Of a stretch of DNA of 7,410 bases, positions 1 to 7,410 are shown piece after piece. Position numbers and translations under genes: made by a program. The stretch is from a virus (lineage: Duplodnaviria; Heunggongvirae; Uroviricota; Caudoviricetes), in IMG/VR virus record IMGVR_UViG_2617270946_000020, positions 1 through 7,410 of that record. The stretch is one strand, 5' to 3'. Numbering within the stretch: the first letter of the stretch is position 1; the number at the start of each line of letters is the position of its first letter. The notes beneath the pieces are model-generated. The model had not been told where the DNA came from and did no database searches. It was given only the letters and a program-made list of their open reading frames with translations.

Positions 1-609
1 TCAGCCAGCAGGCCATCCGACAGCATAACTGCGGATCGCCTTCAGGTCTGTCAGCGCCTCAACCTCGGCTTTCATCTGCAACTGCCGTGTATTAATCTCC
101 ACTCCCTTCGCAAACATCGCCTGCTCTGTCGCATCTGCCAGCGCAATTATCTCCGCCGCCGTCACCGGCACCACATTATTATCCCCGTCGGTCCAGGCAA
201 AACCTTCCGGAAGACGGTTATTCTCTGCCATCAGGCGTGTCGTGCTTATCCTGGACAACGTCTTCTTGCCGTAATCCCAGTTCCTTCCGTTGAATTCCAT
301 CACGTATTCCATACTCTCCTGCACATCACGCCAGATATTAATCTCTTCCCGTTTCGCCGCCTTTGCCGCTTCCAGTACTGCTTCCGTGGCAACAAAGGCA
401 CTCACGCTTCCGTACGTTCCTGCTGTCAGCCCAGACCACAATGCTTTTCCGTGTTCTGTATTATCCGTTTCCGTTGCAGTATACGGCAGCCATACCTGTT
501 CCCCTTTTTCATTCACCGCGTCTTCAAACTGCACCTCACAGTTTATCCCGCCATATTCGTTGCTGGCTGCATTTCGTACTGCAAGAATCTCTTTTCCCTT
601 ATCCACCAT
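1..609 (-). CDS. Tail-fibre-associated protein of unknown function; possibly a tail fibre assembly/chaperone (Tfa-like) by position and size
   Basis: Open frame ending with a TGA stop at 1-3. A perfect AGGAGG Shine-Dalgarno (minus strand, about 611-618) lies in the 10 nt between the stf stop (TAG, 618-620) and ATG 609-607, which is followed by GTG 606-604 (spacing 2 nt to the ATG, 5 nt to the GTG). Product about 201 aa, similar in size to lambda Tfa (194 aa), but the canonical Tfa C-terminal motif is not evident. The frame stays open upstream to a stop at 724-726, so the ORF track reports 1..696 from a GTG. Confidence 0.5.
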   Translation of the reverse strand: MVDKGKEILAVRNAASNEYGGINCEVQFEDAVNEKGEQVWLPYTATETDNTEHGKALWSGLTAGTYGSVSAFVATEAVLEAAKAAKREEINIWRDVQESMEYVMEFNGRNWDYGKKTLSRISTTRLMAENNRLPEGFAWTDGDNNVVPVTAAEIIALADATEQAMFAKGVEINTRQLQMKAEVEALTDLKAIRSYAVGWPAG

Positions 610-617
610 GACCTCCT

Positions 618-2012
<1,395 letters not shown>

Positions 2013-2023
2013 ATTCACCCCAC

Positions 2024-2049
2024 AAAAAAGCCCGCCTGAACCGGCGGGC
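2024..2049 (-). terminator. Rho-independent terminator downstream of the lom-derived ORF
   Basis: Minus-strand sequence GCCCGCC-GGTTCA-GGCGGGC-TTTTTTG: a 7-bp GC stem, 6-nt loop and T6 run, lying between the stop at 2077-2079 and the stf start. Confidence 0.7.
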
Positions 2050-2076
2050 TGTCATAACACTGTGTTACCTGGCTAA

Positions 2077-2712
2077 TCAGAATTTATAACCGATACCCAC
2101 GATGAAACCGTCAGTGCGCCAGTCACCACTGCCGGAGCCTTCATAAGCAATATCAATGGCCACGGATTCGGTCGGGTTAAACTGCACGCCAGCCCCCCAC
2201 GCCAGAGACGTGTTGCTGTGGCAACCGTCATCACTTCCGGTCAGCACGTCGTGCGTTTTCCCCTTGTTGTCAGTTACGCGGAGATAATCCCCGGAGAAAG
2301 TCGACACACGGCTGTAAGCCACACCCGCCATCGCATACGCGCTGAACCATTCATTCACGCGTACAGACGGCCCCGCCATCACGCTGAACCAGCGGTTACG
2401 CACGGAATCTTCATGCCAGCGGGTATCTCTGTAGCGCGTTTTTTGCTCATCCTCAGCATTGGCATAACTGAAGGACGTAAGACGGGCATACACCGCCTCC
2501 GGTGCCGTGTCATCACCGGCAATACGTATCTGGTACCAGCCTTCGTTCATCTGACGGCGAAAGCCCGGCATCTGCATCGACAGGGCGCGAATGGCTTCCG
2601 CTGCCGTGTTCACATACAGGCTGAGGCGGCGGCCAAATCGTTGTAAATCCCCGTGAAGGCAGATGCGTGCCAGTGGCGGTGACGCCAGACAGAATGCGTT
2701 CGTCGTTGCCAT
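2077..2712 (-). CDS. Chimeric ORF: N-terminal about 78 aa of tail assembly protein I fused in frame to the C-terminal about 130 aa of a Lom/Ail-family outer-membrane beta-barrel protein (J deleted)
   Basis: N-terminus MATTNAFCLASPPLARICLHGDLQRFGRRL...EGWYQIRIAG matches lambda gpI as I recall it (MAATHTLPLASPGMARICLYGDLQRFGRR...DGWYQVRIAG). C-terminus ...SVMAGP...SAYAMAGVAYSR...AYEGSGSGDWRTDGFIVGIGYKF matches lambda Lom. There is no signal peptide, and no J-like ORF exists between K and stf. Junction estimated near 2470-2485. Confidence 0.8.
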   Translation of the reverse strand: MATTNAFCLASPPLARICLHGDLQRFGRRLSLYVNTAAEAIRALSMQMPGFRRQMNEGWYQIRIAGDDTAPEAVYARLTSFSYANAEDEQKTRYRDTRWHEDSVRNRWFSVMAGPSVRVNEWFSAYAMAGVAYSRVSTFSGDYLRVTDNKGKTHDVLTGSDDGCHSNTSLAWGAGVQFNPTESVAIDIAYEGSGSGDWRTDGFIVGIGYKF

Positions 2713-3353
2713 TTTTCGGAATACCTCTCCCGTTTACTCAGTTGTTCAGGCAGATGGTGAAGCAGCTCACCGTTGCCGCAGTAAATGGCGGCATGGTTCG
2801 GTACCGAAGCACCAAAGCAGCACAGCAGAATATCGCCCGCCTGTGCAGAGGACAGGGGCACCCGGTAAAAGCCTGTGACCGCCATATTGTCCAGGTAAAG
2901 GTTCTGACCGTTGCGCCACCAGTCATCCTCGCGATGAAAATCCGGCATTTCAGTCCCCGCCAGATGATAAGCATCCCGAAACAGCGTGTAACAGTCCGTC
3001 ACCCCGTGCTCAAAGCGCCGTCCTGTCAGATGTGGCACACAGCGGAATTTGTGAATGTCACCCCGGCAGACCAGCCACCAGGGCAGTGCGCTTTTTATCT
3101 GCAGCCGCCGGTCAGCCTCGCTCAGCCAGGGCAGCCCACCGGGATGACTGTGGACCAGTGCCACAATCTCCCCCTGCATCTCTGCCCGCAGCCAGTCTTC
3201 CGGTGCGATACGAAAATACGCCTCCGGCTCTGCAGAAATATTCACACAAGGGATATACCACTCCCCCTCCGGCGTGCTTATCACGAAGCCGCACGACTCC
3301 GCAGGCGCACACCGCCGGGCATGCGCCAGAATCGCTGATTCAGTCTGTGTCAT
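2610..3353 (-). CDS. K: Tail tip assembly protein K (JAMM/MPN metalloprotease-like plus NlpC/P60-like domains)
   Basis: Begins MTQTESAILAHARRCAPAESCGF... as I recall lambda K. Contains the JAMM motif HSHPGGLPWLSEAD (H-x-H-x7-S-x2-D) and an NlpC/P60-like Cys/His region (DCYTLFRDAYH ... NHAAIY). Start is 10 bp after the L stop. The 3' end overlaps the I-derived start by 103 nt in another frame. Confidence 0.88.
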   Translation of the reverse strand: MTQTESAILAHARRCAPAESCGFVISTPEGEWYIPCVNISAEPEAYFRIAPEDWLRAEMQGEIVALVHSHPGGLPWLSEADRRLQIKSALPWWLVCRGDIHKFRCVPHLTGRRFEHGVTDCYTLFRDAYHLAGTEMPDFHREDDWWRNGQNLYLDNMAVTGFYRVPLSSAQAGDILLCCFGASVPNHAAIYCGNGELLHHLPEQLSKRERYSEKWQRRTHSVWRHRHWHASAFTGIYNDLAAASACM

Positions 3354-3363
3354 AAACCGGGAT

Positions 3364-4062
3364 TTACTGCGAAAGTTTATTAATGGAAAGGAAACCGCCA
3401 AAATTGCCGACATTCCTGCGCAGTTCACACCCGCGCATGCACTTGCTGCATCTGTCCTTACGGATATCCGTGGTGGGTTTATCGAACTCATCCGCCACAG
3501 CCCCGCCCGTGTAACCACACTCATCAGAGCGGTAGGTCCACATACAGGTGTTCGCCAGCATGATACGACCGGGAAACAGCGCCCCGTCCGTCTCGGTCGG
3601 TGTGGCCAGCACAAACGAGGCCGTCATGGCTGTCAGCTGCGACATCTGCTCCACCACCCAGCGGTCACTCAACTCCTGCTCCGGGTCCGCCGCCGGATTG
3701 CCCGCAACGAAATTCACCGCATCCAGAAAACGGGCATACACCCGGCGGCGGACCACCGTGGCCCCCACCAGACTCTGCAGGTCTTCCGCCATCCCGGTGA
3801 CCAGACCGAACAGATTGGACACCGTCAGCGACGGTCTGGCACTGCTGCCCTTCCCGCTCATCTCAAAGCCGCTGCCATCAATCGGGTACGCCTGGTACTT
3901 CCGCCCCTGCCAGGTGACCGGCTCCCCTTTTTCATTCAGCTCATTACAGAAAAAATACCGCTCACCACCCTGCACCGTCAGGTCAATTTCCCAGAGTACC
4001 ACCCGCGGTGACTGCTCTGATTTAACCGACTCGCTCAGACTTTCTTCGTGAATATCCTGCAT
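3364..4062 (-). CDS. L: Minor tail protein L (tail tip complex)
   Basis: 232 aa, the same length as lambda L. MQDIHEESL...VVLWEIDLT...GERYFFCNE...GEPVTWQG...FGGFLSINKLSQ matches lambda gpL end to end; the C-terminal cysteine cluster is retained. Confidence 0.9.
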   Translation of the reverse strand: MQDIHEESLSESVKSEQSPRVVLWEIDLTVQGGERYFFCNELNEKGEPVTWQGRKYQAYPIDGSGFEMSGKGSSARPSLTVSNLFGLVTGMAEDLQSLVGATVVRRRVYARFLDAVNFVAGNPAADPEQELSDRWVVEQMSQLTAMTASFVLATPTETDGALFPGRIMLANTCMWTYRSDECGYTGGAVADEFDKPTTDIRKDRCSKCMRGCELRRNVGNFGGFLSINKLSQ

Positions 4063-4095
4063 CAGTTCACCACCTGCTTAAACTCCGCGCTGAAC

Positions 4096-5788
<1,693 letters not shown>

Positions 5789-5964
5789 GAAACAGTCTCA
5801 CAATAAATACAGGGGCCGACATGAAAGTGCCCGAAAATGACTTTTTTAGGCGTTTTCATGTCGGACCTTTTACGGATTCGATATTAGAAAAAACAAATAG
5901 TTATGTTCGAGAAGTACCGACATGATTTTCCCCGGAAAATTTTCATAAATAGCGAAAACCCGCG
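5789..5964 (-). promoter_or_regulatory. cosB-like terminase binding region between cosN and the Nu1 start
   Basis: Read on the minus strand it begins CGCGGGTTTTCGCTATTTATGAAAATTTTCCGG, matching the lambda left end immediately after the cohesive end. It carries three copies of a CGACATGA-type motif, two direct and one inverted (plus-strand about 5816-5824, 5856-5864, 5917-5925). The cosN-to-Nu1-start distance (about 177 bp) is as in lambda. Confidence 0.7.
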
Positions 5965-5976
5965 AGGTCGCCGCCC
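5965..5976 (-). other. cosN cohesive-end site (12-nt GGGCGGCGACCT on the minus strand)
   Basis: Plus-strand aggtcgccgccc is the exact reverse complement of the lambda 12-nt cohesive end GGGCGGCGACCT. The flank on the other side (minus strand ...GTGGGTCCTTTCCGGCGATCCGGGCCGTTACG) resembles the lambda right end (...CGGGTCCTTTCCGGTGATCCGACAGGTTACG). Confidence 0.85.
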
Positions 5977-6012
5977 CGTAACGGCCCGGATCGCCGGAAA
6001 GGACCCACGAAA

Positions 6013-6027
6013 TGATAATGATTATCA
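6013..6027. promoter_or_regulatory. Fur-box-like 7-1-7 palindrome TGATAATGATTATCA
   Basis: Perfect inverted repeat TGATAAT-G-ATTATCA, matching the 7-1-7 Fur operator model (tGATAATnATTATCa); about 15 of 19 positions match the classical 19-bp Fur consensus. Lies about 40 bp from cosN in an AT-rich region and about 155 bp upstream of the plus-strand ORF starting at 6183. Confidence 0.35.
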
Positions 6028-6182
6028 TCTATATAAGGTTTATCACAACATGTGTGTACGCCATCAAACCACGAGAAATAATCAATTATGACGCAGGTAT
6101 CGTATTGATTGATCTGCATCAAATTAACGTAAAAGCAACTTCAGATAATACAAATCAGCAACACTGAATATGGGGAAACATT

Positions 6183-6383
6183 ATGTCATCAAAGAACAGA
6201 ACCCGCAGAACAACAACCCGCAACATCCGATTTCCAAACCAGATGATTGAACAAATTAACATCGCTCTTGATCTGAAAGGTTCAGGAAACTTTTCAGCGT
6301 GGGTTATTGAAGCCTGCAGGAGAAGGCTGGCAACAGATGCAACGCATCTGCGCCCGGCCAGCATGAAAAATAACGAGAAATGA
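6183..6383 (+). CDS. Small basic protein, YlcI-like (DUF3950-type) by recollection; possible DNA-binding protein
   Basis: The 66-aa ORF MSSKNRTRRTTTRNIRFPNQMIEQINIALDLKGSGNFSAWVIEACRRRL... has an Arg/Thr-rich N-terminus and a motif I recall from small YlcI-family proteins found next to Nu1 homologues (nohD) in E. coli cryptic prophages. It is transcribed opposite to the late operon. Confidence 0.6.
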   Translation: MSSKNRTRRTTTRNIRFPNQMIEQINIALDLKGSGNFSAWVIEACRRRLATDATHLRPASMKNNEK

Positions 6384-6514
6384 ACGTTCGGCTACAGGAG
6401 CAGGTACCCACTGTCCTCCAACAATATTTCATCTTCATATCCGACGGAACAAGACTTACCCTGCCGGGATGTACAGAATAACAACAGAGTGATAATTAAT
6501 TTCTGATGAAATAA

Positions 6515-6847
6515 TCAGGGTGCAGAAGGACTAAAGATAAACGTTTTCTTCACGCCTTTACACGGCCTGTCCTTCTCAAATCGCCATTTTGCCATCGCCT
6601 TTACAACCTGCTCATCAAACAAATGGTGCGGCTCTGAACGGATAAACTCAATTCGGGTGACAGTACCATCAGCACCAATATCAAACTTCACATCAACCCG
6701 TCCCTTTATATAATTTGCCGCTGCATAGGCCGGATATTGTGGTAATGCCTTAACCAACTGTCGGGGCATATCTGTTTTATGTTGCGTACAGCCCATAACC
6801 AGAGAAGACAACAAAATAATTAACGGAAGGTTTCTTTTCATTTTCAT
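6515..6847 (-). CDS. Lipoprotein with TonB C-terminal-like domain
   Basis: Signal peptide with lipobox (MKMKRNLPLIILLSSLVMG-C, Thr at +2) followed by PQYPAYAAANYIKGRVDVKFDIGADGTVTRIEFIRSEPHHLFDEQVVKAMAKWRFE, which aligns with the E. coli TonB C-terminal domain as I recall it ([56 protein letters not shown]). The start could be ATG 6847 or ATG 6841; the ORF track starts at GTG 6856. Confidence 0.7.
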   Translation of the reverse strand: MKMKRNLPLIILLSSLVMGCTQHKTDMPRQLVKALPQYPAYAAANYIKGRVDVKFDIGADGTVTRIEFIRSEPHHLFDEQVVKAMAKWRFEKDRPCKGVKKTFIFSPSAP

Positions 6848-6861
6848 TCCCGGCACAGATA

Positions 6862-6878
6862 AGAATAAGTCTTATTCT
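6862..6878. promoter_or_regulatory. Perfect 8-1-8 palindrome AGAATAAG-T-CTTATTCT immediately upstream of the TonB-like lipoprotein start; candidate operator
   Basis: Exact inverted repeat 15-31 bp upstream of the start codon. It overlaps a possible -10 hexamer (TAGAAT on the minus strand) and has GATAAG/AATAAG half-sites loosely resembling Fur hexamers. Confidence 0.35.
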
Positions 6879-7185
6879 AACAATGCCACCCTGTCGGTCA
6901 TCAATCCTCTGCTTAATGGCAACGACAATTATCCGACTTAAATCACAAATCAGACACATGACATAACAGAGCTTGCGAGGTAACACATCGTCCGGTTTCT
7001 TCCACCATCGCACCGGACCAGCGACCATGAGGGGACAACGCCGCGCTCCGTTAACGCGGTAAACCCCGGTGTGTATCGTTTTTGATTATCCCCGCACACT
7101 CGCGCAGAGGAGTCTCCCGGTCGGGCTGCGGTCTCTGTTAATGCGGGGATACGGCGACAATACCGCGCATGGTTAATAAGGTCGC

Positions 7186-7410
7186 TCAACACACTGGCTG
7201 TAATGCAGCGGATACCATGCGGCATTTAGCGGCATTCATCGTACACTCAACGGTTAGCTCTTCATTCGTGGCATTCACCTGAAAGGTCCGGGAGTGTAAT
7301 TGCGTACATTTACCACTGAACGAACCTTCAACAAGAACACGACCACGCTGCAAAATACGGAACGGAATTGTTCCCTGAAAAGGCTTTACGGTTACCAGTA
7401 ATTTCTTCAT
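7186..7410 (-). CDS. Hypothetical 74-aa protein; the ORF reaches the window edge, so it may be 5'-truncated
   Basis: Open frame MKKLLVTVKPFQGTIPFRILQRGRVLVEGSFSGKC...; the ATG sits exactly at 7408-7410, the last three bases of the window. I do not recognise any homology. Confidence 0.3.
   Translation of the reverse strand: MKKLLVTVKPFQGTIPFRILQRGRVLVEGSFSGKCTQLHSRTFQVNATNEELTVECTMNAAKCRMVSAALQPVC

Follow-up and report, generated by a model that had tools for sequence, protein, structure and literature searches.

A stand-alone TonB C-terminal domain in a lambdoid-prophage lipoprotein, a possible decoy for TonB boxes at the outer membrane

Periplasmic fragments of Escherichia coli TonB (residues 33-239, 103-239, and 122-239) inhibit TonB-dependent transport, an effect attributed to blocked contacts between TonB and its transporters, and the result with fragment 33-239 has been reproduced (bioRxiv 10.1101/2020.01.05.895219, citing earlier work). 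Two phage outer-membrane lipoproteins, Llp of T5 and Cor of lambdoid phages, act on the periplasmic face of the transporter FhuA, a face that is partly occluded when TonB binds (bioRxiv 10.64898/2026.03.26.714494). A 2024 review of superinfection exclusion names cor as the FhuA-directed mechanism, and TonB appears in it solely as a feature of FhuA-type transporters, not among phage-encoded proteins. The present work concerns a gene in a 7,410-nt stretch of viral DNA assigned to the Caudoviricetes (IMG/VR record IMGVR_UViG_2617270946_000020, positions 1 to 7,410; hereafter the window), which encodes, with very high confidence, an outer-membrane-type lipoprotein with a single globular TonB C-terminal domain. 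This protein may act as an unenergised, outer-membrane-tethered decoy for TonB boxes, a tentative proposal to which we give slightly less than an even chance.

The existence of the protein is already known, as databases hold it under names such as 'TonB family protein', 'TonB C-terminal domain protein', and 'partial tonB-like membrane protein encoded within prophage CP-933N'. New here are the recognition of a known domain in a lipid-tethered, stand-alone, phage-carried architecture and an exclusion role that is plausible by analogy with the systems above. The gene and its product have the following features:

6515-6841, minus strand: coding sequence for a lipoprotein with a TonB C-terminal domain, 108 amino acids plus stop (open reading frame list, RefSeq annotation of near-identical loci, dN/dS)
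6848-6851, minus strand: Shine-Dalgarno-like GGGA, 6 nt 5′ of the ATG at 6841 (direct reading of the sequence)
6788-6841, minus strand: predicted signal peptide (residues 1-17) and lipidation Cys18, with lipobox LVMGC, Thr at +2, and no Asp retention signal (PROSITE-type lipobox pattern)
6530-6766, minus strand: TonB C-terminal domain, residues 26-104, equivalent to E. coli TonB ~154-231 (profile, PDB sequence, model, and Foldseek)

The longest open frame spans 6515-6856 on the minus strand and would yield 113 amino acids from a GTG, but the real start is likely the ATG at 6841 (MKRNLPL...), because GGGA lies 6 nt upstream and RefSeq uses this start for WP_000828068.1, an identical protein that it calls 'TonB family protein'. 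The resulting product begins MKRNLPLIILLSSLVMGC-TQHK. Under a PROSITE PS51257-type criterion, in which a hydrophobic stretch is followed by [LIVMFWSTAG](2)-[LIVMFYSTAGCQ]-[AGS]-C near the N-terminus, LVMGC with Cys18 is a lipobox, which bears out the initial annotation's description of a lipoprotein with Thr at +2; the same pattern occurs in 11 of 15 family members, and one further member has LSAC. In E. coli, the +2 rule holds that Thr at this position, with no Asp, leads to Lol-dependent sorting to the outer membrane, and the window lipoprotein is predicted to be sorted there because of this rule.

Between E. coli variants A and B (the window allele and the phage-21 allele, respectively), dN/dS is 0.13 at dS ~1.4, indicating purifying selection on the protein. 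Together with the conservation of the gene, this value makes a non-functional relic unlikely. Codon 94 (window 6560-6562) encodes Cys in the window allele and in variant B (RPCKG and RPCQG) and Arg in the other variant-A alleles (RPRKG); this Cys is a single polymorphic free cysteine in the loop preceding beta3.

The TonB C-terminal domain that had been proposed from the translation was confirmed by profile searches, with Pfam TonB_C (PF03544) matching at E = 1.4e-14 and 54.7 bits against a cut-off of 24.6, and TIGR01352 tonB_Cterm scoring 54.4 bits against 27.1. The E. coli TonB C-terminal chains 1u07, 2gsk, and 2grx match residues 26-104 at E ~1e-15; by manual count, 31 of 79 aligned residues are identical to E. 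coli TonB, and identities across TonB C-terminal structures range from 37 to 42%. AlphaFold, run with an alignment of 15 family sequences in place of a poor single-sequence run (pLDDT 56), gave a model with a pLDDT of 86.7 overall and >96 over residues 28-103, which displays the order of elements of the TonB C-terminal fold: a helix, a two-stranded hairpin, a helix, and then beta3. Foldseek superimposed this model on TonB in the BtuB complex (2gsk_B) with a target-normalised TM-score of 0.92 and an rmsd of 1.0 Å, and on TonB in the FhuA complex with an rmsd of 1.2 Å; over the TonB structures 1U07, 2GSK, and 2GRX, TM-scores were 0.88-0.92 and rmsd values 1.0-1.4 Å. The part of TonB that is conserved in the window protein is the stretch found ordered when TonB is in complex with FhuA or BtuB.

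Compared with the E. coli TonB C-terminal domain (~150-239; 1U07, 2GSK, 2GRX), the window protein has the same fold, the YP motif, and the structural aromatic and glycine positions. In E. coli TonB numbering, Y163, P164, G174, F180, G186, F202, W213, and F230 are kept and Y215 is replaced by F, while Q160 corresponds to L and R166 to Y. Unlike TonB, in addition to the replacement of these last two residues, the window protein ends 5 residues past beta3, is lipid-anchored at the opposite membrane, and has no N-terminal transmembrane helix, Pro-rich spacer, or ExbB/ExbD coupling. The initial annotation was also correct in noting the absence of a spacer and an inner-membrane anchor: the domain follows the lipobox directly, with a tether of only ~8 residues from Cys18. 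Models of full-length TonB (NCBIfam equivalogs, PRK10819) score 49-74 bits against cut-offs of 265-448, and only profile positions ~150-240, i.e., the C-terminal 80-90 residues, are matched, from which it follows that the window protein is not an energy transducer.

In the proposed mechanism, the lipid anchor would hold the domain beside TonB-dependent transporters at the outer membrane, where its beta3 edge would pair with the exposed TonB boxes of transporters or of incoming group B colicins and would thereby keep the real TonB off them. The outcome would be reduced TonB-dependent entry of T1/phi80-type phages, of colicins B, D, Ia, and M, and of catecholate microcins, at the cost of some loss of siderophore uptake. 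During lytic growth, the gene would be expressed through late-operon read-through and, in lysogens, from a weak promoter of its own with a -10 covered by a palindrome. Energy transduction would not be expected because the protein has no inner-membrane anchor, ExbB/ExbD coupling, or periplasm-spanning spacer, and binding to TonB boxes is assumed because the domain is the segment ordered in the FhuA and BtuB complexes.

Competition for TonB boxes with exclusion of TonB-dependent phages or colicins had already been suggested in the initial annotation. Such a decoy becomes more plausible because the modelled fold lies ~1 Å from that of the receptor-bound TonB domain, because published periplasmic TonB fragments inhibit the TonB system, because Llp and Cor provide a precedent at the periplasmic face of FhuA, and because a near-identical prophage encodes a comparable lipoprotein with a TolA domain, described below. 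The engineered fragments likewise present a periplasmic TonB C-terminal domain without energy coupling; they differ in being soluble, overexpressed, and longer, whereas the window protein is natural, minimal, and predicted to be lipidated. Llp and Cor are likewise small phage lipoproteins of the inner leaflet of the outer membrane, but their fold is unrelated, as the Foldseek matches of the window protein in the PDB are only to TonB/TolA-type domains. Moreover, Llp is FhuA-specific and allosteric, while a TonB domain would act on TonB boxes in general. Membership of the Llp/Cor superinfection-exclusion lipoproteins was accordingly rejected, since structural matches were confined to TonB/TolA-type domains and PHROG matches to families 1267 and 34172. 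The cor gene also lies in the tail region, unlike the slot occupied by the TonB-domain gene. A PADLOC search gave no meaningful defence-system match.

The same domain could alternatively be a scaffold in an envelope or host-interaction lipoprotein of the Bor/Iss kind, with peptidoglycan, Lpp/OmpA, or a host factor as ligand, which we consider rather improbable. TonB residues Q160 and R166, which have been implicated in TonB-box and FhuA contacts, are not conserved in the window protein, as such a change of ligand would allow. Against this, the conserved part is exactly that ordered in the transporter complexes, the P-R/K-x-L ... YP segment and beta3 are kept, and no evidence points to another ligand.

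The genomic setting bears on this alternative as well. The initial annotation had called the gene prophage-adjacent, which proved wrong: it is part of lambdoid prophages, flanked by the lysis cassette and the terminase small subunit gene and on the same strand as both, in a slot that comes after Rz/Rz1 (or bor/iss) and before the terminase small subunit gene on the late-gene strand. This slot was found in an E. coli CB6837 prophage (locus L001) that is 99.8% identical to the window over 6150-7410, in strain 14EC001, in an O157 strain, in phage 21 (after Rz/Rz1 and bor, annotated 'TonB C-terminal domain protein'), in ST131 strain JJ1887 (after iss), and in Stx1a-converting phages. Slot and strand are the same in E. 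coli prophages, phage 21, a Klebsiella phage, and a Salmonella prophage despite protein identities of 40-72%. The gap between Rz and the terminase genes is a classical moron hot spot and holds bor in lambda. With good support, the TonB-domain gene is best described as an accessory gene (moron) that lambdoid and HK97-like prophages carry, with its position between lysis and terminase genes and its variable presence both observed and a promoter of its own seen only as a consensus match. Among 5426 complete E. coli genomes, 1616 (~30%) carry the family, ~415 as variant A and ~1200 as variant B, and pathogenic lineages commonly carry it, among them O157, Stx1a phages, and ST131.

Lambda Bor and Iss are likewise small outer-membrane lipoprotein morons of the Rz-to-cos gap, and the genes adjoin the TonB-domain gene in phage 21 and JJ1887. 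This proximity, the frequency of carriers in pathogenic lineages, and the fact that iron limitation is a host cue would all fit an envelope role, but Bor and Iss are encoded on the opposite strand, are unrelated in sequence, confer a serum-resistance phenotype, and have no link to TonB.

The position beside the lysis genes, together with a full-length match to phrog_1267 (category lysis, 'Rz-like spanin'; E = 7.7e-43), raises the further alternative of a lysis accessory or spanin-like protein, i.e., a late outer-membrane lipoprotein that takes part in outer-membrane disruption. Copies in prophages and phages are indeed always on the late strand and just downstream of the lysis cassette. O-spanins, however, are short, Pro-rich, non-globular outer-membrane lipoproteins, unlike the compact TonB fold of the window protein; Rz, with the Rz1 lipoprotein embedded in it, is already present in the near-identical prophage, the annotation of phage 21 lists i- and o-spanins, and homologues occur in chromosomal, non-phage contexts with Fur boxes. 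A spanin function is therefore very unlikely, and the PHROG 1267 label, rejected here on account of the globular TonB fold and the Rz/Rz1 genes already present, is probably a positional mis-annotation.

An exhaustive HMMER search recovered many proteins of ~110 amino acids that align end to end with the window protein at 34-49% identity, most of them with lipoboxes. The family retains the P-R/K-x-L ... YP segment and the beta3 strand and has a motif that is not present in TonB proper, SEPxHLFD..V..A..KWRFE..KP.KGM.K...F. Relatives in phage contexts (Salmonella and Klebsiella; 40-45% identity) occupy the same slot: the copy in a Salmonella HK97-like prophage lies just after a DUF2514 Rz-like gene and before HNH and terminase genes, and the Klebsiella phage copy lies between lysis and terminase genes. 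Chromosomal or island relatives were found in Raoultella (near lacZ/lacI), Klebsiella, Serratia (in S. grimesii between ycgN and dsbB), and Erwinia (adjoining araA/araB); the island that holds the Raoultella planticola copy also contains a toxin-antitoxin pair and an IS110 transposase.

Upstream of these relatives, Fur boxes are frequent. Sites were scored against the 19-mer GATAATGATAATCATTATC or the 7-1-7 core TGATAATnATTATCA, with p values from shuffles. Of the 13 family loci scored, 8 have a near-perfect Fur box no more than 45 nt from the start, 7 of them at 3-18 nt, and in these 8 loci the core TGATAATnATTATCA is matched at 12-14 of 14 positions (shuffle p <=0.001). They consist of TGATAATTATTATCA and close variants upstream of the Raoultella, Klebsiella, and Serratia chromosomal copies and the Salmonella prophage copy; the Salmonella copy has the box TGATAATTATTATCA with a core match of 14/14, and the Serratia box GATAATGATTTTCATTACC matches the 19-mer at 17 of 19 positions. 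No Fur box was found at E. coli variant B or the Erwinia copy among the 13 loci. The upstream sequences thus predict that the small TonB-domain lipoproteins form an unrecognised Fur-regulated family, and control by iron starvation is probably ancestral, because a Fur box stands at that position in most relatives.

Such control would also be expected of a helper, an outer-membrane lipoprotein induced through Fur whose TonB fold would aid TonB-dependent uptake or signalling when iron is limiting. A helper of this kind might keep the TonB boxes of ligand-loaded transporters extended, organise transporters, or bind a partner in the periplasm, for example a binding protein, and prophage copies might then confer an iron advantage on the host. 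The near-perfect Fur boxes directly upstream of the Raoultella, Klebsiella, and Serratia chromosomal copies and the Salmonella prophage copy, the co-induction with transporters expected of a positive factor, and the chromosomal copies outside phage contexts all speak for it. Nevertheless, we regard a helper as improbable, as there is no known mechanism by which an unenergised TonB domain would promote transport, published periplasmic TonB fragments inhibit, and no transporter or binding-protein gene adjoins the chromosomal copies inspected.

For the window allele itself, the candidate control elements are:

6862-6878, either strand: perfect 8-1-8 palindrome AGAATAAG-T-CTTATTCT, candidate operator (exact match; Fur-box register of homologues)
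6874-6901, minus strand: predicted sigma-70 promoter with -35 ATGACC (6901-6896), a 16-nt spacer, and an extended -10 TG-n-TAGAAT (6879-6874) (consensus scan)

The palindrome at 6862-6878 was correctly placed by the initial annotation over a putative -10: it is exact, and it overlaps the -10 of the sole promoter-like site on the minus strand, although the promoter scan as a whole performed at chance level (2 sites found against 2.1 expected from shuffles). A scan at the TonB-domain gene found no convincing terminator. Perfect palindromes with arms of at least 8 number 2 in the window against ~0.54 expected, and the chance of one falling within a given 100-nt promoter window is ~0.006. The palindrome is identical in the three other variant-A loci inspected; variant B lacks it, a 13-nt indel having removed the right arm. 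Its end lies 16 nt from the start codon, in the same register as the Fur boxes of relatives, mostly at 3-18 nt, and it shares their 17-bp dyad geometry. Its match to the Fur 19-mer is 13/19 (p ~0.03), while that to the 7-1-7 core is 9/14 (p ~0.37). The suggested link to iron and Fur therefore stands for the family, with strong boxes at 8 of 13 loci, and is weak for the allele in the window.

On these matches, the variant-A dyad may be either a diverged Fur site or the site of another dimeric regulator. It is an evenly balanced question whether the palindrome is the operator of a non-Fur regulator or has no regulatory role, in which latter case expression would be by late-operon read-through alone. 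The poor core match, the complete absence of the right arm from variant B, and a promoter prediction at chance level favour this alternative. Against it stand the dyad being perfect and unchanged in all 4 variant-A loci inspected, its distance of 16 nt from the start, and the 19-mer score. In addition, no dyad-related site with up to 3 mismatches occurs in 27 kb of the near-identical prophage including its immunity region, and a lambdoid cI/Cro-type operator was rejected for that prophage on this ground, which also tells against a regulator of that type there.

A second perfect 8-1-8 palindrome, ATGATAAT-G-ATTATCAT, lies at window 6012-6028 in an AT-rich stretch between the cos/Nu1 side and a ylcI/ynfO-like gene (6183-6383, plus strand). 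It contains an exact Fur 7-1-7 core, TGATAATGATTATCA, and matches the 19-mer at 15 of 19 positions, making it a candidate site; the 250 nt around it are 88% identical to right-end sequences of lambda-like phages such as HK629 and HK630.

Several points weigh against the proposed TonB-box decoy. Binding to TonB boxes is assumed from conservation of the modelled fold, and Q160 and R166 of TonB are replaced. Variant B, which with ~1200 genomes is the commonest E. coli allele, has neither the palindrome nor a recognisable Fur box. Inducing a TonB antagonist under iron starvation seems counter-productive for iron uptake, unless the benefit coincides with abundant transporters and with competitors' iron-regulated colicins and microcins, when cells are most vulnerable. 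Given the variety of receptors that the carrier phages use, it is unlikely that the protein excludes a phage in the classical way, at that phage's own receptor. The published inhibition by TonB fragments required overexpression and longer fragments (bioRxiv 10.1101/2020.01.05.895219). Finally, a full-text literature search found no paper discussing or testing this protein, and the phage 21 genome announcement makes no mention of TonB.

A parallel to the decoy is offered by a second lipoprotein of the E. coli CB6837 prophage, encoded outside the window (L001 18505-18933, minus strand). This 142-amino-acid protein has the lipobox LTTGC with Thr at +2, and its C-terminal 88 residues form the C-terminal domain of TolA, with a Pfam TolA match at 2.9e-22 and matches to E. 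coli TolA structures at E 1e-24. Its gene, annotated 'TolA', sits between prophage tRNA genes and a nanS-like esterase gene, the position of the stx genes in Stx phages, and relatives occur in ~895 of the 5426 complete E. coli genomes and in phage mEp460. Both proteins combine a lipobox, Thr at +2, and a short linker with the C-terminal domain of a periplasm-spanning energy transducer; the second differs in carrying the TolA rather than the TonB domain, occupies another slot, and appears to be uncharacterised. Copies of the tips of both TonB and TolA, the two transducers hijacked by colicins and phages, are exactly what a decoy strategy would predict, and the pairing thus supports a decoy by analogy, without amounting to proof.

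A broader generalisation, which we consider less likely than not, is that enterobacterial temperate phages and some chromosomes encode a class of outer-membrane-tethered TonB and TolA decoys. Such proteins, lipoprotein copies of the two transducers' C-terminal domains, would intercept TonB boxes and TolA-binding epitopes at the outer membrane and make cells broadly tolerant of group B and group A colicins and of phages that depend on TonB or TolA, with the TonB type ancestrally switched on through Fur by iron starvation, when the exploited transporters are most abundant.

Should the TonB-box decoy prove true, nearly a third of sequenced E. coli would carry an unrecognised defence, including O157, Stx1a-phage, and ST131 lineages as well as phage 21, and this defence would act at the import step itself rather than at the receptor surface or in the cytoplasm. 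How sensitive cells are to TonB-dependent phages, colicins, microcins, and siderophore-antibiotic conjugates would change, with a possible trade-off in iron uptake. It would also explain the many short 'TonB family proteins' in databases that are unable to transduce energy, and would correct a misleading spanin label in PHROG.

The remainder of the window is a decayed, heavily deleted lambdoid prophage in which the TonB-domain gene is intact. No contiguous copy of the window exists among the 5426 complete E. coli genomes searched, and its left 6 kb match intact prophages only as 4 pieces spread across 13 kb. The open reading frames point to truncation of tail genes as well as of the portal gene. 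The genes of window 1-5800 were read by eye from their translations:

618-2018: tail-fibre open reading frame with long collagen-like repeats
2077-2712: open reading frame ending in Lom-like sequence
2610-3614: K-like open reading frame
3364-4062: tail L
4096-5118: portal open reading frame, truncated or fused
5115-5321: gpW
5318-5788: N-terminus of Nu1 fused to the C-terminus of the terminase large subunit

A small open reading frame at 7186-7410 (minus strand) is cut by the window end; in related prophages, it directly follows Rz and encodes 74-80 amino acids (MKKLLVTVKPFQG...). It has no Pfam or NCBIfam match, and it matches the C-terminal part of PHROG 2571, a family without an assigned function. 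Between this frame and the TonB-domain gene lies a GC-rich non-coding element of ~195 nt (window ~6991-7185), overlapped by a spurious 91-amino-acid open reading frame (6950-7225). When the whole window was compared with Rfam at E up to 1, the only matches were chance ones to microRNAs and lncRNAs, none of them within the upstream region 6842-7185, and RNA folding of 6985-7190 on either strand was no better than that of shuffles (z -0.7 and -1.6). The prophage small RNA svsR (PMC12803456) was considered as a candidate here and rejected, as it maps to the cI 3′ end instead. The GC-rich element is present in 1911 of the 5426 E. coli genomes at a median of 2 copies, is never annotated, and is far more widespread than the TonB-domain gene; it also occurs in phage 21 (locus L003 ~3690-3850).

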